64,000 nt of DNA from a virus (Duplodnaviria; Caudoviricetes), in the IMG/VR virus record IMGVR_UViG_3300022660_000043; one strand, given 5' to 3'. Under the pieces are notes generated by a model. It had not been told where the DNA came from, did not search any database, and saw nothing but the letters and a program-made list of their open reading frames with translations. This document shows, piece after piece, positions 31,121-44,847 of the stretch. A program made the translations under genes and the position numbers. Each line of letters opens with the position of its first letter. Position 1 is the stretch's first letter.

Positions 31121-31675
31121 TTACTTTGTGCCGGTACTTCCTTGCCAGCCTTCACCTCTACTGGTCTTCTCCGTGAAAAACTCTTCCTCGGTTGCCTCTA
31201 CCATTTCGATCTTGTCAGTAGAAATCATATGAGGAATAAACTGCATGATCTTCTGATCACACTCGATCTCCTGATACTTGTTAGAAGTATTGATCAAATG
31301 AAGATGCCACTCACCTTGATAGCTTGCATCAATAACAGAAGCTCCAAAAACTAGCTTCTTCTTAGTTGCAATACCAGACTTGTTGTTAGCAATCAAAGCA
31401 AGCTCGGGGCCAAACTTGCTCTTAATGCCAGAAGGAATAATAATATCCTTATGCGGCGCAATATAAATCTTGCCTCCACAGGTAATAAAAGTCTTTCTAC
31501 GAAGCTTTGCCAAAAATTTAGCAAAAGCTCTATAAGGGGTAGCAATACCGGGATTCTTAGTAATCAAATCGAATCTAAACTTGAGACTATAAGCAGGAAT
31601 ATAGAAATCAATACCTGCATTCTCATTAGGATTACGGATAGGATCCTTTACATCTCTTATCTTAATAAACTGCAT
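31121..31675 (-). CDS. dut: Trimeric dUTPase
   Basis: AGIDF, KSG, VIDASYQGE, RGEGWQGSTG. Confidence 0.9.
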   Translation of the reverse strand: MQFIKIRDVKDPIRNPNENAGIDFYIPAYSLKFRFDLITKNPGIATPYRAFAKFLAKLRRKTFITCGGKIYIAPHKDIIIPSGIKSKFGPELALIANNKSGIATKKKLVFGASVIDASYQGEWHLHLINTSNKYQEIECDQKIMQFIPHMISTDKIEMVEATEEEFFTEKTSRGEGWQGSTGTK

Positions 31676-33561: not shown

Positions 33562-34278
33562 TTATTCATAGTCTTTATACTGACCTTGGACGTCATATTG
33601 AGTATGGTAAATCATTGGTCTGAAAAGCTTAATAATGCAAAACTTTTCTGGTCTGACCTTGCAATGATTAATTGCTTTCCAGCCAAAGAAAGGAACCATA
33701 TACCCAACGATATCACAGTGATCGTAGAAGTTATAAGCTTCAGCGCAGCAGCTCTTGACGAAGTTGTATGTATCTTTTCCGTAGAAAGGCTTGACACTTC
33801 CGTAGGTATAAAGATATGGCTTAATACCAAACTTAAAATAAATATCCTCTGCAGCAAGCTGGGCCATACCAGATCCGAGAGACCAGCCAAAAACTTCAAC
33901 AAAACAATCAGGATGTTCATCTAGTAAAGCTTTAATCTTTTGTCTCACAGTTGATTGACAAACAAGCCACATATTACCCCAGCCTCTATGTACTTTAAGC
34001 TGAATTAACTTTCCCTCAAAAGTGAACTTATCATAGATTTTGGATGGGAAGTTAAAATTAACTCGCCAATCAGACTTACTAGATGTTTGCTCAAAAATAA
34101 CTTGAATACAACTTCTAGGCTCATCAAAACGTACTTGAAATTCTACACTGTACTTCTTACCCTTAAACTCATAAGGAATGCTCTCATATCTAGCTATTTC
34201 CAAATTAGTATCAAGCTTATTCAAGTTCTCGGAACAAATAGTAAAATAGTCTTCGAAATTTAGTCTTTTATACTCCAT
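33562..34278 (-). CDS. Class 3 lipase-like alpha/beta hydrolase
   Basis: VHRGW, nucleophile elbow GWSLG, TYGS, DIV, late His; GGAGG RBS. Confidence 0.8.
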   Translation of the reverse strand: MEYKRLNFEDYFTICSENLNKLDTNLEIARYESIPYEFKGKKYSVEFQVRFDEPRSCIQVIFEQTSSKSDWRVNFNFPSKIYDKFTFEGKLIQLKVHRGWGNMWLVCQSTVRQKIKALLDEHPDCFVEVFGWSLGSGMAQLAAEDIYFKFGIKPYLYTYGSVKPFYGKDTYNFVKSCCAEAYNFYDHCDIVGYMVPFFGWKAINHCKVRPEKFCIIKLFRPMIYHTQYDVQGQYKDYE

Positions 34279-35046: not shown

Positions 35047-35982
35047 TTATTTATTATTTCCAAATAACTCATAGTCAACAACTCCAGTTTCTAAGTCTAT
35101 TTTATTAATATGTAAAAAACATTTACCTGCTGCTAACAAATTTTTTTTAAACGCGGCCAGTAAGTCTTTAAACGTTTGAGTTGTTTCAACACCAACTTCT
35201 CCACTAACTCGATGATAAGCAATATCAGCGGTTCGATATTCAGAAGAAATTAACAATACAGCATCATGTGGATTTTGTGCTGCAATTGTTGAATTTGATT
35301 CTAATAATTTAACATCTACTCGTATTTTACAATTATCAATAATCAAATCATAATCCGCAAGACGCCCCGGATCTCCACGATAAAGATAACCATCAAACTT
35401 ATCTAACTTTTTGAAAATAATTCCACACTCTTTAGCAGCCTTCTCAAAAATATCCTGTTGAATGCTACTATTTAACTTCTTTTGAACTTTTTGCTCTGTA
35501 GAGCCCGTCCAAGTTTTTGAGCCAATTGTTGAAAGCAACTTCGCGGTTTCTGGTGAAATACTGTTCGTTTTAAGTATTGAATCGTAGACATTTTGGCAAA
35601 GAGGACTTCTCGAATCAATATATTTTTCAGCATTCTTTGTATTTTTGCCATACTCATCGAGCCATACATCAAAGGTATGTTTATTACCAGTTGCATCTAA
35701 AAATGTAAGCCATACTAGATAGCTTTTACCAAATTGGCCATAATAAGTCTGACAAATTTCAGCTTTTTTATCTACTCTAACTCTGTCACCACAAGCTAAA
35801 AACAGTTTTAATTTTTCATCCCAATCTGCCTCAGGTAAGACAGATCTATTTTCTATATTATTTGGGCACTTCCATTTTTGTGCAAGGAAATTATATCTCC
35901 AAGGTTCAATACTTAGTTCTACCCAATGGTTTTGTAACGGCTCAATATAGTCTGTTACTAAAGAATCTGTAAAATGTTGCAT
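35047..35982 (-). CDS. Hypothetical protein, possible PD-(D/E)xK nuclease domain
   Basis: LADYDLII....RVDVK motif in the C-terminal half. Confidence 0.45.
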   Translation of the reverse strand: MQHFTDSLVTDYIEPLQNHWVELSIEPWRYNFLAQKWKCPNNIENRSVLPEADWDEKLKLFLACGDRVRVDKKAEICQTYYGQFGKSYLVWLTFLDATGNKHTFDVWLDEYGKNTKNAEKYIDSRSPLCQNVYDSILKTNSISPETAKLLSTIGSKTWTGSTEQKVQKKLNSSIQQDIFEKAAKECGIIFKKLDKFDGYLYRGDPGRLADYDLIIDNCKIRVDVKLLESNSTIAAQNPHDAVLLISSEYRTADIAYHRVSGEVGVETTQTFKDLLAAFKKNLLAAGKCFLHINKIDLETGVVDYELFGNNK

Positions 35983-36497
35983 TATCCTTTAAGCTCCTCC
36001 AAATGAATCTTTTTGTTATAAACATGAAGTTTAGTCTTATAGCCTTCGTCCTCTACTTCAGGCAAAATTTTCCAAAGCTCTAGTTCAGAATATTCATCAA
36101 GATTAGGAAAGAAAACTTCTGCTTCGCCATCTGCGTCCACTTTGTTTACATATACCTTATCATAATAGGGAAGCATAGACTTATAAAGCATTCCACCCCC
36201 AATTATAAACACATTTTGAGTTTTAGATAACTCTGTAATTAGCTTGATTAAATCTTCAAAACTATGCACACAAAAGCAATCATCTCTATCATAGCCTTCT
36301 GGACAAATAACTATAGTAGATCTGCCTTTAAGTGGCTTACTGCTTGGAAAACTAAGTAATGTGTTCAAGCCGCAGACGACAATGCTATCAGCAGTAGTTT
36401 GTTTAAAGAATTGCATATCTTTTTTAAGATTAAAAAGTAAACTATTAGCTTTTCCGAGTCCCCAATTTTTATCTACACAGCAAATACCAATAATCAT
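35982..36497 (-). CDS. folA: Dihydrofolate reductase
   Basis: VDKNWGLG, DMQFFKQTT, KPLKGR, FIIGGG, FFP. Confidence 0.92.
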   Translation of the reverse strand: MIIGICCVDKNWGLGKANSLLFNLKKDMQFFKQTTADSIVVCGLNTLLSFPSSKPLKGRSTIVICPEGYDRDDCFCVHSFEDLIKLITELSKTQNVFIIGGGMLYKSMLPYYDKVYVNKVDADGEAEVFFPNLDEYSELELWKILPEVEDEGYKTKLHVYNKKIHLEELKG

Positions 36498-36500
36498 GTT

Positions 36501-36653
36501 TTAGCTCTCCTTCATTACTTGTTTCATATATTCTTGAAGTGCAATCCTGATTGCGCCACTAACAGTCAAATCTAACTTCTGTGATAAAGATTTAAGCTGC
36601 TCATAAAGCTCAGGACTTAAATCTAAACTAAGTCTTATACGATCTTTTTTCAT
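36501..36653 (-). CDS. Ribbon-helix-helix protein (50 aa)
   Basis: Hand-translated MKKDRIRLSLDLSPELYEQLKSLSQKLDLTVSGAIRIALQEYMKQVMKES; overlaps the endonuclease 3' end. Confidence 0.75.
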   Translation of the reverse strand: MKKDRIRLSLDLSPELYEQLKSLSQKLDLTVSGAIRIALQEYMKQVMKES

Positions 36654-37365
36654 TATTAATCCTTTCTAGCATCAAATTCAAATCTGACTCTCTACACCAA
36701 TAATAACCCTTACCATTATGTAATCTTTCACAACAATATTTTATGTATGCAGCAGTTGTACTTAAAGCTAAACCAGCCTCATGATAGCTTGAAAATATAT
36801 TAATAATATTCCCAGCACTGTTTAACTGGTAAACAGTTTTACCTGCAGTTTTGCCATTACAAAGTTTAAACTTGTACTGCTCATATTGACTAGCCAAACA
36901 CCATCCAAAGCCTCGATACTGGCGTAATTTTCCATTGCAGCAGCGTCCAATATTACTCCTAGCACTATTAAAATCTTCAGGATAAAGCTGTCTAGCCGCT
37001 TCTCTAATGCTTGAATATGTTGCAAGTATTTGTTTATCTAAGCTAAGTTGATAAACAGCTTCACCTTGGGTTGTTTGACCTGAGCCACCAATTAATAAGT
37101 TATAACCATTCTCAATACTATCAAACTGATTTATATAAGCAATTTCAAGCTCATCTGCTTCCTGTTTTGTAAGATTCTCTATTAAAACTTGATGCTCAAA
37201 ATTCTCCCAGCCATACTTAAGAATAGCTCTGTAAAATTTTTGTTGAGACTTATAGCCACTCCCATCAGAGTGCCATCTATGGGTAGGGTTAGTATAACAA
37301 GTTTGCCCAATGTAACATTTACCATTAATTTTATTCGTATGTTTATAAATTAAATAAGATTTCAT
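36628..37365 (-). CDS. GIY-YIG homing endonuclease with two NUMOD1-like repeats
   Basis: LIYKHTNKINGKCYIGQT, E..YI, GYN; VYQL...YSSIREA...I.RCC...G..W twice. Confidence 0.9.
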   Translation of the reverse strand: MKSYLIYKHTNKINGKCYIGQTCYTNPTHRWHSDGSGYKSQQKFYRAILKYGWENFEHQVLIENLTKQEADELEIAYINQFDSIENGYNLLIGGSGQTTQGEAVYQLSLDKQILATYSSIREAARQLYPEDFNSARSNIGRCCNGKLRQYRGFGWCLASQYEQYKFKLCNGKTAGKTVYQLNSAGNIINIFSSYHEAGLALSTTAAYIKYCCERLHNGKGYYWCRESDLNLMLERINNEKRSYKT

Positions 37366-37666: not shown

Positions 37667-38128
37667 CTAACACTCCTTTTCTATAAGTTGTCTTAAAATT
37701 CCATCATCTGACCTCATATAAATAACACCATTCTTATTTATTATACGATTAATACCTGCATTTTTAATTAGGCGCAAACAAATCTCACAGGGCCAAGCTT
37801 CACACTCAAGGGCTATGCCAGATTTTACATCATAACCTGAAAGATAAAGATCTGCTCCAATCATATCTTTACGTGACGCACTGAGCAAAGCATTCATTTC
37901 TGCATGAACTGCGGGACAAGTTTCAAAAGTAGCCATATCTTTGCCACTATTACATTTAGTACATACTGCACAATGTGCTTCACCTCTAGGTGGATTATTA
38001 TAGCCAGTACTGAGAATCTCTCCCTCCGAAACTACCACCGCTCCATAATGTTTTCTAAGACAAGTAGATCTTTCAGAAACTGCTTTAGCTATATTAAGAT
38101 AATATTCATCTAATGACGGTCTTTTCAT
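37667..38128 (-). CDS. dCMP deaminase (ComEB/DCTD family)
   Basis: RSTC, STGYN, HAEMNA, PCEIC. Confidence 0.9.
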   Translation of the reverse strand: MKRPSLDEYYLNIAKAVSERSTCLRKHYGAVVVSEGEILSTGYNNPPRGEAHCAVCTKCNSGKDMATFETCPAVHAEMNALLSASRKDMIGADLYLSGYDVKSGIALECEAWPCEICLRLIKNAGINRIINKNGVIYMRSDDGILRQLIEKEC

Positions 38129-38201: not shown

Positions 38202-38471
38202 TTAAAGCGGAATTATTTCAACTTTAGGTAATCTCTGACTAGGTGTTTCAGAACTCGGCTGCTTCACCACAGAAGCCTTAAAATCTTTAATAAAAGCAAT
38301 AGCTTCCTTGCATTCATCACAAACCCAAGGATAATAATTACAACCATAAGGAACCTCTCGTACATTATCACAAAGTAGACACCCTTGCATTGCTTTTATT
38401 GGCCCTATTTCAAGAGTTCTTACCTCTGTAGGGTCTATATCCAATTTTGTTGTACTCTTTTCTGAATCCAT
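38202..38471 (-). CDS. Small zinc-finger-like protein, paralogous to 37418-37663
   Basis: CLLC...CDECKEAI. Confidence 0.6.
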   Translation of the reverse strand: MDSEKSTTKLDIDPTEVRTLEIGPIKAMQGCLLCDNVREVPYGCNYYPWVCDECKEAIAFIKDFKASVVKQPSSETPSQRLPKVEIIPL

Positions 38472-39019
38472 TACATCTCCTCATAAGCTTTCTTTAGAAA
38501 TTCTGTATTATTTTTATACCACTCAAAAAATGCTTCTTCACCGCAGGTAACTAAATTCATAATCATCTTATCAAGAAATTCTTCAGAGGCAGGATGCTGA
38601 ATTCTTTTACCTTTGCATTTATTTTCCCAATAATCTAAAAGTATTTCAGGGACCCATCTATCAGGATTATATGCCTTTGAGGCACCGAGCATATCGCAAA
38701 AGCTTTCAATAATATATTTATAAGGCATCTTCATAGGAATGATTTTACCTTCTTCATCCTCATCCCACCAGTACTGAAAGTGATGTTTATTAGTATGATA
38801 ATGATGAATCCAAGAAGGTGAGTATCCAAGCTGTTCACGCGCTACTTGGTGAGGGCTCTTTCTACCGGTATAATATTTACAAATCTTCATTTCAGTAATA
38901 GAATACTTACTAAGATCATGTACTAAGCCTTGCCAGATAAGCCCCATCTTAAAGCAGGCTTTTCTAACAAACTTTCTATGGGTTCTGATAATTTTAAGAT
39001 GCTTACAGAATTCCTTCAT
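38471..39019 (-). CDS. DUF5662-like HD-related protein
   Basis: H..FV, HDLSKYS, HH..TNKHH..YW, E..CD. Confidence 0.7.
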   Translation of the reverse strand: MKEFCKHLKIIRTHRKFVRKACFKMGLIWQGLVHDLSKYSITEMKICKYYTGRKSPHQVAREQLGYSPSWIHHYHTNKHHFQYWWDEDEEGKIIPMKMPYKYIIESFCDMLGASKAYNPDRWVPEILLDYWENKCKGKRIQHPASEEFLDKMIMNLVTCGEEAFFEWYKNNTEFLKKAYEEM

Positions 39020-39555: not shown

Positions 39556-39698
39556 TCAGCCACCTCCTTAAGATAGGCTTCGAGAGCTAAACGGATAAGT
39601 AAACTTAACGTAATGTCTTTTTCTTCTGCAGCAAGCTTAGCTTTGTCGATCAGCTCTTTTGAAGCATCAAAATTAACTCGCACTCGTTCTTTTTTCAT
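39552..39698 (-). CDS. Ribbon-helix-helix protein (48 aa)
   Basis: Hand-translated MKKERVRVNFDASKELIDKAKLAAEEKDITLSLLIRLALEAYLKEVAE; GGAGG RBS inside the endonuclease gene. Confidence 0.75.
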   Translation of the reverse strand: MKKERVRVNFDASKELIDKAKLAAEEKDITLSLLIRLALEAYLKEVAE

Positions 39699-40377
39699 TA
39701 TCTAAGTACCTCCACATAAAGCCGCCTGTTTGATGCAGCTTGCCTGTACAACATTTACTAATATTTTGGTGCTTAATTCCAGTTGATCTTTCTGCCTCAG
39801 AGCATGAGCTAAATTCTGCTACAAACTTCCCATCTTTTGTATATTGTAATACACGTTTAGGTTGTCCTTTACTTGCTCCAATAGGCTTTATTTGATAGCT
39901 ATCATAATCCTCTACGTGGCACCAATAAAATCCATTAGCTGAATTTATTGTACCTAAGCAGCAATGACTAATATTAGCTTGACTAATCCCTGTAATTCTT
40001 TCCGCCTGTCTAGTGGATTCATATATAGCTAATATATTTTTATTGGCATCTAGTTGGTAGATAGCTTTTTGGAAATGCTGAGGCATACTACCACCTAAGC
40101 TCGTATTATAGCCACGATTAATACTATCAAACTTAGCAATGTAATATTGTTCTCGTAAATTTGCATGCTCTGCAGAAATACAGTATTCTAAAATTTCATG
40201 ATTAAATGAATCCCAACCGTACTTACGAATTGCACTGTGAAACTTAGGCTGATTTACGTAACCATTGCCTTTTTGCCAACGTTTTTCAGGATCTTTAACT
40301 TGTACCGTTTGGCCTATATAGCACTTATTATTTTTAATATTAGTATGTCTATAAATTAAATGAGTAAACATCATCAT
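39673..40377 (-). CDS. GIY-YIG homing endonuclease with two NUMOD1-like repeats
   Basis: LIYRHTN..NNKCYIGQT, EQYYI, GYN; AER.TGI...NIS.CC.G....G..W twice; paralog of 36628-37365. Confidence 0.9.
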   Translation of the reverse strand: MMMFTHLIYRHTNIKNNKCYIGQTVQVKDPEKRWQKGNGYVNQPKFHSAIRKYGWDSFNHEILEYCISAEHANLREQYYIAKFDSINRGYNTSLGGSMPQHFQKAIYQLDANKNILAIYESTRQAERITGISQANISHCCLGTINSANGFYWCHVEDYDSYQIKPIGASKGQPKRVLQYTKDGKFVAEFSSCSEAERSTGIKHQNISKCCTGKLHQTGGFMWRYLDNEKRTSAS

Positions 40378-40427
40378 CACCCCACTCATTTAATTTAGCA
40401 TATTTTTACGTAAAATTTATACAAAAA

Positions 40428-41273
40428 TTACTCAGCTACTTGAAACTTAGTTGCAAGCTTTGTAGATTCATAACCGACAAGCTCAAAATCATCTTCAGTG
40501 AAATCATAAAAATCTTTTACCTCAGAATTAAGCTTAAGCTGTGGGCCAGGATATTCAGGATTCTGAATAACCTCTTTGACAAGCTCTACATGACGATCAT
40601 AAATATGAAGGTTATTTACAATATGTACAAGCTCTCCGGGTTGATAACCACAAACCTGAGCAAGCATATGTACAAGCAGCGCATACTGAATTGTGTCCCA
40701 ACCACCAGAAGAGGCTGCAGCAAGTAAATCACCGGATCTTTGAATTACTGTACAATTAAGCTTTCCGTCTGTCACATCCCAAAGAGTTTCATATACACAA
40801 GGCGGAAGGTTCATTTCATGAAGATCCTGAGGACACCACATAGTAGTAATCATTCTACGATCCATAGGCTTGTTCTTCAGAAGATAAATAAGGTTATCTA
40901 CCTGATCAAACTTACCATAACCATAATCAGAAATCTTACCAAGCTGATAGCCATAGGTTTTACCAATGGTTCCGTCGTCGCCTTCCCAGGCTCTCCAAAT
41001 AGCAGCAGACTTTCCAAGCTCGTCTACTACATTAGACTTCTTCTGCCACATCCAAAGTAGCTCCCTTACTACCCCCTTAAAAGCTTGAGTTCTAAGAGTA
41101 AGAATAGGAAATTCCTTGGAAAGATCATAGCGTCTTACAGCGCAAAAAGTTTTAATAGTATGAGCCGGAGTACCATCAGGCCACTTAGGTCTTACCGAAT
41201 AATCCTTATCATTAAAACCATTAGTAAGAAGCTCATTAACTTCATTCTTAAAATAAATATCGGCAACTGACAT
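40428..41273 (-). CDS. thyA: Thymidylate synthase family enzyme (Asp at the Asn177-equivalent site)
   Basis: FPILT, ELLW, YGYQ, RRM, PPC, QRSGD, HIYDRH. Confidence 0.88.
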   Translation of the reverse strand: MSVADIYFKNEVNELLTNGFNDKDYSVRPKWPDGTPAHTIKTFCAVRRYDLSKEFPILTLRTQAFKGVVRELLWMWQKKSNVVDELGKSAAIWRAWEGDDGTIGKTYGYQLGKISDYGYGKFDQVDNLIYLLKNKPMDRRMITTMWCPQDLHEMNLPPCVYETLWDVTDGKLNCTVIQRSGDLLAAASSGGWDTIQYALLVHMLAQVCGYQPGELVHIVNNLHIYDRHVELVKEVIQNPEYPGPQLKLNSEVKDFYDFTEDDFELVGYESTKLATKFQVAE

Positions 41274-41351
41274 ATTAATTCTCCTTAATAAAATTCTACA
41301 ATATATAATACAATAAAAGGCAACCATATTTTATGATCGCCTTTGTTTTTA

Positions 41352-41843
41352 TTAATTTTCTTCTTTAAGAGCTCTCTTAATTGCTGCAAGAAGCTCTTCA
41401 TATCTCTGTTTAGTATTCTTATGAAAAATAATTGTTTTCTTATGGTCCTCATACCACTTGAAAATCTCATCAAGTTTACCTTGTTTATGACTGAAAGACC
41501 AGTGATCACAGAGCATTTCGATAATGTACTCTTCTGGCATTTCAAGAGCATGAGTACCATCATCATCGTTAATCAGTACCCAATGCTGCCAATGATGAGG
41601 GTTTGCATGAATATGATGAAGCCAAGCAAAATTGAACTGCTCTTCTACTTCTTTAGTCTTAGACTTGCCATAAAAATATTTGTCATAAGCATCATACTCT
41701 TCATTGCCCCATTTACTTACGTCATGAATATCAATTACCTGACGATACTGATCTTTGATAATCTTATGGTCTACAAGCCACTGATAAGCAGTTTCTACTG
41801 CTGTACGATGCTCAATAATATAATTGTCGTAATTTTTACTCAT
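41352..41843 (-). CDS. DUF5662-like HD-related protein
   Basis: HDVSK, AWLHH..NPHHWQHW, EMLCDHWS. Confidence 0.7.
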   Translation of the reverse strand: MSKNYDNYIIEHRTAVETAYQWLVDHKIIKDQYRQVIDIHDVSKWGNEEYDAYDKYFYGKSKTKEVEEQFNFAWLHHIHANPHHWQHWVLINDDDGTHALEMPEEYIIEMLCDHWSFSHKQGKLDEIFKWYEDHKKTIIFHKNTKQRYEELLAAIKRALKEEN

Positions 41844-42358
41844 ACTAACTCCAATCTAGAAAGTTTATTTTTTAGATCCTCAAGACTACCTGTATTATAA
41901 ATAATATGATCAAAATCAAAATTATCAAGAGCAGTTTCTGAAGGATGTTGTTTCTGAGTCTCACTAAGACCATTATCAAAATCTGGTCTAATAACTCTAA
42001 TTAAAGTTGTGTCAAAGTTTGCTCTCATCTTCTCAACCTCATTTACAAAACGACAATCAGGAATAATTACTACATCCCAAGAGTCCTCAAAAAGATTAAG
42101 AATACTGATAATAAAATCTACCCAAAAATCAGGCTGTTTAGCACAAACTGTATTTGTTCCTACTTGCTGAAGAAGTGTTCTGCCATAATCGTCTTTCTCA
42201 CCATTCCAGCCGAAAAAAGTCTTACAAATATACTTAAGTAGATCTGCGTAGTGAGTAATCAAAACTCTTTTACCCTTCGCCTTATAAGTCTCTTCAAGAA
42301 TTAAAGCTGAAGTATCTTTACCATGCTGAGCTTTTGCACTGATTAAAATAACTTTCAT
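41840..42358 (-). CDS. Deoxynucleoside monophosphate kinase (phage type)
   Basis: P-loop KAQHGKDT, ADLLK, R.LLQ..GT, DCRF.NE, HPSE. Confidence 0.85.
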   Translation of the reverse strand: MKVILISAKAQHGKDTSALILEETYKAKGKRVLITHYADLLKYICKTFFGWNGEKDDYGRTLLQQVGTNTVCAKQPDFWVDFIISILNLFEDSWDVVIIPDCRFVNEVEKMRANFDTTLIRVIRPDFDNGLSETQKQHPSETALDNFDFDHIIYNTGSLEDLKNKLSRLELV

Positions 42359-44109: not shown

Positions 44110-44847
44110 TTATTCTGTTAATGTTTTTCTAGTATGCCCACAAATTAAATTTCGGAAGCTTCCGAGGGACATGCCACAATTTTTATATTCTTCGTATAAA
44201 TTTTTCATGGTTTCTCCATTATGATAACGCTGTCTTATATATAATACAGTTTGATCTGATAGTTTACTTCTAGGATTCTTTTCATTTGGGAAGCTATACA
44301 AAAGTCTTGCATTATTTTTATGCCAAAGCTTTACTTCTTCAGTATTTAACTCTGTAAGGACTGTTGGCCACGTTTCCCATGAATATATTTTTTTAAAGCC
44401 TGACTTTTGAATCTTATCAGAATAATCTTCATAAATATCTTGTACAGACTCAACACAAGCTGCATATCTATATCGAATATCTTTGACGTCTGCTTCTGTT
44501 ACTTTATGGTTATGATGTTGTTCCCCAAATATGCCAGAGACTCCTTCTCCACCTAAAGTAGCATTATATCCATTATTATAAGTATCATAAAAGCTAATCC
44601 AGTAAATTTCTCTGGCATCTAAGACTTTACGGTCTTTAGTAAAGAGCTCTTCAAGCACTTCAACTTCGAAGTTGTCTTTTCCATATTTTCGTATAGCTCT
44701 ATATAAAGCTTTATTGTACTCAATATCCTGTTCACAGTCTAAAGAAGCACGTCTAAAGTGTGATTTTAAACGTGCCTCAATATTAACAGATTTTCCTATG
44801 TAGGCGTGATGTGTAATTTTATTAGTTATTTTATATATGCCAATCAT
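44110..44847 (-). CDS. GIY-YIG homing endonuclease between the topo II subunits
   Basis: GIYKITN...YIGKS, REIYWI, GYNAT.GG; two C-terminal K(L/V)(S/T)...V..IR HTH-like units. Confidence 0.9.
   Translation of the reverse strand: MIGIYKITNKITHHAYIGKSVNIEARLKSHFRRASLDCEQDIEYNKALYRAIRKYGKDNFEVEVLEELFTKDRKVLDAREIYWISFYDTYNNGYNATLGGEGVSGIFGEQHHNHKVTEADVKDIRYRYAACVESVQDIYEDYSDKIQKSGFKKIYSWETWPTVLTELNTEEVKLWHKNNARLLYSFPNEKNPRSKLSDQTVLYIRQRYHNGETMKNLYEEYKNCGMSLGSFRNLICGHTRKTLTE

Follow-up and report, generated by a model that had tools for sequence, protein, structure and literature searches.

The gene at 40428..41273 on the minus strand of the window (the whole 64,000-nucleotide stretch of DNA analysed here) encodes a ThyA-fold enzyme of 281 aa (PF00303) that has aspartate at the dUMP/dCMP specificity position and is, judging from its sequence, probably a dCMP C5-methyltransferase. 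The open reading frame runs from an ATG at 41273, preceded by a good Shine-Dalgarno sequence, down to 40428, and its product matches PF00303 with E=2e-76 in a profile search. The codon at 40695..40697 (minus strand) reads GAC in reverse complement and specifies Asp193, the equivalent of E. coli Asn177 and T4 Asp179. BLASTP against E. coli ThyA pairs W-D-T-I-Q-Y with F-N-I-A-S-Y past a three-residue insertion, the register against B. subtilis ThyA (1b02) is identical, and a multiple alignment with T4 gp42, the Xp12 TS, phi3T and clostridial ThyA sets Asp193 in the column of T4 Asp179 and the Xp12 aspartate, where canonical ThyA has Asn177. A sequence-only reading of this DNA had singled out both the aspartate and the short insertion before it, and had proposed these alignments and a survey of related phages; the residue stands in every pairwise and multiple alignment, and the insertion proves to be shared with some N-type phage TS (G-G-F-N-D-I-E-Y in G075, G-G-W-N-L-V-Q-Y in P0190, and also P0127). 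Because these insertion-bearing relatives carry Asn at the site, the register is secure and an alignment artefact caused by the insertion can be ruled out.

The aspartate is invariant in 121/121 close homologues, in which it is encoded by either GAC or GAT, and a dN/dS of about 0.04-0.12 shows purifying selection on the gene, which together rule out a sequencing or assembly error or a pseudogene; a synonymous change at 40695 is present in public contigs. Among about 430 homologues, the residue at site 177 is exclusively N or D. The AlphaFold model (pLDDT 97) best matches B. subtilis ThyA 1b02 in a whole-fold comparison, with a TM of 0.94 and an rmsd of 1.6 Å, and the catalytic set is intact: Cys159, Glu71, Tyr107, Arg139/140/179, Ser180, Asp182, His223 and Tyr225, corresponding to the E58, Y94, C146, R126/127/166, S167, D169, H207 and Y209 (E. 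coli numbering) that, with the fold, define the thymidylate synthase superfamily. The phosphate-binding residues are all retained. Leu156 corresponds to E. coli L143, Val160 to H147 and Asp182 to D169; Asp182 is invariant among close homologues, with no D169N, and the combination of D193, L156 (a non-acidic residue 143) and D182 is that of the Xp12 type. His147 is missing in 29/30 Asp rows of the homologue alignment. Just upstream of the gene, at 41305..41344 (minus strand), a terminator-like hairpin (41344-41316) is followed by the motif TTGTATTAT, which occurs in 5 copies in the window against 2 expected, every one on the coding strand, and a promoter-motif scan of the window did not find it above chance; it might possibly, if weakly, mark a promoter of the gene's own.

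From the sequence, fold, conservation and gene co-occurrence, all of which were observed directly, we infer the substrate, the product and its fate as follows. The enzyme would be a dCMP C5-methyltransferase that depends on folate and descends from a ThyA of the clostridial/B. subtilis type, in which Cys159 would attack C6 of dCMP while Asp193 read the N3/N4 edge of the cytosine; methylene-THF would give both the carbon and the hydride and be oxidised to DHF, which the phage DHFR would recycle, and the resulting 5m-dCMP, or its triphosphate, would be deaminated to dTMP or dTTP by a phage or host PF00383 deaminase. No other thymidylate-type enzyme is encoded by the phage, so the Asp-type ThyA most likely takes the thymidylate slot by an indirect path, via 5m-dCMP. 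In published work, Asp at 177 redirects TS to dCMP and is a mark of phage contigs with modified C (PMC8670742), engineered N177D/N229D enzymes favour dCMP (as cited in PMC8670742), and every characterised natural D enzyme acts on cytosine nucleotides (PMC5175136). Of seven natural Asp-type enzymes for which 5mdCMP synthesis was predicted, five made it in vivo and two gave no 5mdC in a published screen; dTTP is formed from 5mdCTP by mSCD-B5, a deaminase linked to such a TS, and the same step has been proposed for Xp12 (10.1101/2024.12.05.627091). Methyl products go with Leu143, and 5-hydroxy-dCMP synthases with D169N, as correlations (PMC13326640). Here transfer of a methyl group is favoured over that of a hydroxymethyl group, since Leu143 and Asp169 are kept and DHFR is present in 7/7 Asp genomes of the phage family and 0/3 others, a distribution that upholds the sequence-only reading, in which DHFR had been taken to favour methyl transfer.

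The window comes from a virus record of 221 kb that is 95% complete, and the phage was found in animal faecal metagenomes. Capsid, deaminase and TS searches place it in a family of 200-237-kb phages, of which a search of INPHARED found no cultured member (best match 52%); the nearest cellular ThyAs are clostridial, so the host may belong to the Clostridia. The family profile rests on ten near-complete genomes (G000-G003, G050, G054, G055, G075, G076 and G077), each of which has a single type of thymidylate gene: Asp-ThyA in 7/10 (G000-G003, G050, G054 and G055), an Asn-ThyA orthologue 59% identical to the window enzyme in G075 alone, and ThyX in G076 and G077. The window phage genome has no second TS, and deaminase and DHFR are linked to the Asp-ThyA there. 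The only genes confined to Asp-type genomes are those for DHFR, for a thioredoxin-reductase-like protein and for three proteins that match no Pfam family. Formate-THF ligase (Fhs) and FolD are found in 4/7 Asp genomes, both adjoining the TS gene in three, and in 0/3 others; together with the distribution of DHFR this would suit a methylase that transfers a hydride and needs one-carbon units in quantity. The phage Fhs and FolD genes lie beside TS/DHFR at G001:C1:36230-40665, G055:C1:189537-192499 and G054:C1:67155-69788, a DUF1599 gene precedes DHFR in G001 and G055, and a match to Tad5, a Thoeris inhibitor, immediately follows TS in G001.

The genes that had been noticed around the enzyme, all on the minus strand, were borne out by Pfam and PHROG: an accessory dNMP kinase (41840..42358; PF21448, phrog_139), DUF5662 protein a with an HD-type metal motif (41352..41843), DUF5662 protein b with an invariant H..HD..HH..E..D (38471..39019; also modelled), a dCMP-deaminase-family protein with HAE and PCxxC intact (37667..38128; PF00383), DHFR (35982..36497) and, nearby, a trimeric dUTPase (31121..31675; PF00692). 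How much they tell of function is another matter: the sequence-only reading stands for DHFR but has to be qualified for the kinase, the deaminase and DUF5662, which are not specific. The kinase is present in 3/7 Asp genomes and 2/2 ThyX relatives, and the deaminase in 4/7 Asp genomes and 3/3 non-Asp relatives, so that, being missing from 4/7 and 3/7 Asp genomes and present in ThyX relatives, they prove little; a custom HMM, too, found no deaminase in the near-complete Asp genomes G001, G054 and G055. The two DUF5662 proteins had been listed among the neighbours as HD-like; DUF5662 is in every family member and in many unrelated phages: about 75 of 80 viral DUF5662 loci, unrelated temperate phages included, have no TS nearby, and the type of protein a is common in unrelated gut phages. 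The model of protein b resembles HD-domain phosphohydrolases weakly (best Z 6.8, rmsd 3.6, 123 aligned), and a search of the literature on DUF5662 found no papers. A role for DUF5662 as a dedicated dCTPase is not supported, given its presence in ThyX relatives, the roughly 75/80 viral loci without TS and the middling fold matches to HD domains. The window deaminase is 25% identical to that of Xp12 and belongs to another subfamily, not the Xp12/mSCD type; it is a candidate for the conversion of 5m-dCMP or 5m-dCTP to dTMP or dTTP.

Several other features of the region deserve mention. GIY-YIG/NUMOD1-type homing endonuclease genes are scattered throughout the nucleotide cluster (36628-37365, 39673-40389 and 44110-44847, minus strand), one of them followed by a 50-aa RHH-like ORF at 36501-36653. 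A class 3 lipase gene (33562-34278, minus strand) lies directly upstream of TS in several relatives, and a pyruvate formate lyase gene (18797-21013, minus strand; PF02901, E 2e-200), which lies between DHFR and dUTPase in some relatives, possibly supplies formate for one-carbon units. A Dam-like adenine methyltransferase, identified by motif alone, and a thymidine kinase (PF00265) are encoded at G000:C1:161120-161971 and G000:C1:172183-172779. Two of the records call for caution: a frameshift splits the TS at G054:C1:75445-76285, which is probably an assembly error, as further genes of this record (51.8% GC) are split too, and G003, in which both contig ends carry the region from TS to polymerase in divergent versions (G003:C1:1-14000 and 214000-233329), is likely a two-strain chimera.

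If the enzyme does methylate dCMP, then in the window phage, with its kinase, deaminase and DHFR, incorporation of 5mC into DNA comes out very slightly ahead; taken on its own, the presence of 5mC in this phage's DNA falls somewhat short of being the expected outcome. The sequence-only reading had proposed two fates for 5-methyl-dCMP, incorporation or deamination to dTMP, neither of which is new, both being known from Xp12-type phages (10.1101/2024.12.05.627091). DNA protection, in which 5m-dCMP would be phosphorylated and replace much or all of the virion cytosine, with thymine coming from deamination or from the host, is a special case of dCMP methylation rather than an addition to it, and we regard it as a serious possibility without favouring it. 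It draws on MetaGPA data, in which 85% of 104 Asp-type TS with a nearby deaminase lie in contigs with modified C (10.1101/2024.12.05.627091), and on the family itself, in whose genomes a first-look search found no C5 DNA methyltransferase and whose members without a deaminase still invest in Fhs, FolD and DHFR. Each near-complete Asp genome has either the dNMP kinase (three) or, shortly upstream of TS, a small Nmad1/DUF1599-like gene (all four kinase-less genomes; the window has no such gene), and a putative hypermodification cluster occupies the same locus in G075. The kinase, however, is missing in 4/7 D genomes and present in ThyX relatives, and we discarded it as a sign of 5mC incorporation, its presence in the latter making it unspecific; loose first-look searches of the family genomes, which do not prove absence, found no known dCTPase (MazG, PRA-PH or dUTPase_2) and no Tmk or C5-MTase. 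The window phage also shows nothing of the Xp12-like avoidance of AT-only palindromes (observed/expected 0.85 for AATT and 1.06 for TTAA, against 0.00 and 0.32 in Xp12), and its lack of C-site avoidance is common to non-D relatives too. The tests bearing on 5mC in its DNA (palindromes, C5-MTase and dCTPase searches) are indirect, palindrome avoidance says little either way, and no positive genomic sign of 5mC emerged. Restriction-site avoidance (Markov and codon-shuffle) was rejected as a test for 5mC, as it did not separate D-type from N-type and ThyX relatives. The 70-kb phage G007, outside the family, has a D-type enzyme and deaminase and encodes a C5 DNA methyltransferase, and C-containing sites are strongly avoided in its genome (O/E 0.41-0.45), which argues against complete 5mC substitution in its DNA, so that a module of Asp-TS and deaminase can exist without replacement of cytosine; the bacterial cases of Asp-ThyA with deaminase argue in the same direction.

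In the first 50 kb of Xp12 (L482), a fully 5mC genome, AT-only palindromes are avoided and C-containing ones are not, and such avoidance is possibly a screening signature for 5mC genomes. The Nmad1-like assignment comes from the Atlas, where it applies to 11% of cluster members, and is a weak lead. It concerns a conserved 107-aa helical protein, weakly Nmad1/DUF1599-like, that is encoded near the 5' side of Asp-type TS at G001:C1:42388-42711 (L159) and 15 other loci and whose distribution is complementary to that of the dNMP kinase. At G075:C1:66136-72301 (L445), the Asn-type orthologue is followed by a 317-aa gene, genes for a YfbR-like HD nucleotidase and a kinase-like protein, a 497-aa gene and a U32 gene, possibly a DNA hypermodification cluster; DHFR was not found in this genome.

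It is unlikely, though it has to be taken seriously, that the enzyme is an ordinary dUMP-to-dTMP thymidylate synthase that tolerates Asp, or one that accepts both substrates but in vivo acts mainly on dUMP. Deaminase, TS, DHFR and dUTPase are also the ordinary gene set for making dTMP from dUMP, a dUTPase is retained nearby, and Asp-ThyA is mutually exclusive with ThyX and N-type ThyA in the family and is the only ThyA of two bacterial MAGs in which no ThyX, credible TK or Dcd was found. The strongest argument is that 3/7 near-complete Asp genomes (G001, G054 and G055) manage without a phage deaminase, and dCMP methylation in these phages would need a host deaminase or another fate for the product; but a host deaminase or DNA incorporation would explain such relatives too. 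An N-type orthologue inside or beside the D clade is likewise in keeping with activity on dUMP. Against it stand the published preferences for dCMP or cytosine nucleotides of the engineered N177D/N229D and natural D enzymes referred to above, and a D that is invariant and under purifying selection at a site where no residue besides N or D is tolerated. We regard as very improbable a dCMP hydroxymethylase or other C5-modifier (T4 gp42-like, or a 5-hydroxy-dCMP synthase) feeding hypermodification: although Asp177 is common to T4 gp42, and the L143 rule is a correlation to which the Xp12 enzyme, with Asn at 143, does not conform, the window enzyme retains L143 and D169, is 26% identical to gp42 against 45-59% to true ThyAs and belongs to a type strictly linked to DHFR, and the family profile has no D-specific gene recognisable as a transferase.

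Aspartate at this site has arisen more than once. A single D clade is rejected (p-AU 5e-27) on a quick tree, in a topology test that omitted Xp12, a long branch in the wider tree also built, and the N-type orthologue is placed inside or beside the D clade; repeated origin of D at a site tolerating only N or D is more in line with a functional switch than with drift. A family relative (L123/L337) has in the same slot (TS - DUF5662 68% - deaminase 62% - DHFR 52-58%) an E. coli-lineage TS that is 24% identical to the window enzyme, also has Asp177, and keeps His147 (L123:1495-2340, in G009:C151). G007 and the Clostridiales GWD2 MAGs G006 and G010 have clostridial-type ThyA with Asp177 and His181, and a deaminase abuts both of these other clostridial-type D enzymes for which there is context (L027; L106/L127), whereas none abuts at about 77 bacterial N-type thyA loci. 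L106 and L027 group in one quick tree and are apart in another, and we claim no common origin for them. In the MAGs the operon (L106:3870-7560; L127-L130:4468-6691) runs deaminase - Asp177/His181 ThyA - DHFR - dimeric dUTPase/MazG-like and is chromosomal, situated between pta and ackA; no second ThyA, ThyX, credible TK or Dcd was found in these MAGs, which may be incomplete. This bacterial variant is rare and is a candidate for a cellular dCMP-first route to dTMP. Removal of the 147-equivalent His improves engineered dCMP methylases, and the clostridial/Bacillus ThyA lineage is naturally without His147, which may explain the repeated switch to Asp.

It is tempting to speculate that phages of this abundant, ~220-kb animal-gut family independently evolved one dCMP methyltransferase and recruited a second, clostridial-type and E. 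coli-lineage enzymes occupying one slot, and that 5mC in virion DNA and thymine are drawn from the same pool with the aid of phage Fhs, FolD and DHFR, several members doing so without a kinase or deaminase of their own; we advance this combined picture tentatively and think it rather doubtful as a whole. The dCMP methylation route of Xp12 is already published, so the mechanism itself is not new. What is new is the independent origin, as read from the sequences, from a clostridial-type ThyA; the occupation of the same gene slot by a second Asp enzyme from a different lineage; and the operon of Asp-ThyA and deaminase as sole ThyA in two Clostridiales MAGs. Neither this phage family nor its ThyA lineage turned up in a literature search. 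If the window enzyme is a dCMP methyltransferase, hundreds of gut-phage 'thymidylate synthase' genes are misannotated, the Xp12 strategy, far from being exceptional, has had many separate origins among ThyAs without His147, phages that bear 5mC or bypass dUMP should be a common class in the ruminant gut, and the deaminases become candidate 5mC-selective enzymes of a new subfamily. The natural pair of Asn and Asp orthologues, 59% identical, would allow base specificity to be dissected, and with the Clostridiales operon a cellular dCMP-first route to thymine can be put to the test.

Among known systems, the nearest in function would be that of Xp12, whose deoxycytidylate C-methyltransferase has its deaminase and DHFR in cis, alongside the mSCD-B5/PaMx74 modules (10.1101/2024.12.05.627091). 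Like it, the window enzyme has Asp at 177, a non-His residue at 147 and an intact TS catalytic set, and is the sole TS of a phage that, in the window genome, clusters it with a PF00383 deaminase and DHFR. It differs in being only 21-24% identical to the Xp12 enzyme and far closer to N-type ThyAs, so that it is not an orthologue and, by this evidence, arose independently; its deaminase is of another subfamily and dispensable in the gut-phage family, the window phage lacks the Xp12-like palindrome signature, and 5mC in its DNA is a candidate only. The closest proteins in both sequence and structure are B. subtilis ThyA and phi3T ThyP3 (44-45%, TM 0.94 to 1b02), with clostridial ThyAs at 47-56% identity, but these true ThyAs have Asn177 where the window enzyme has Asp after its insertion. 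Asp at 177 is common to T4 gp42, MilA and the RB69/DLP3 5-hydroxy-dCMP synthases, yet all of these have an acidic residue 143, and the 5-hydroxy-dCMP synthases D169N as well, whereas the window enzyme has the canonical leucine (L156) and aspartate (D182); and T4 keeps a second, true TS, whereas the window phage has a single one.
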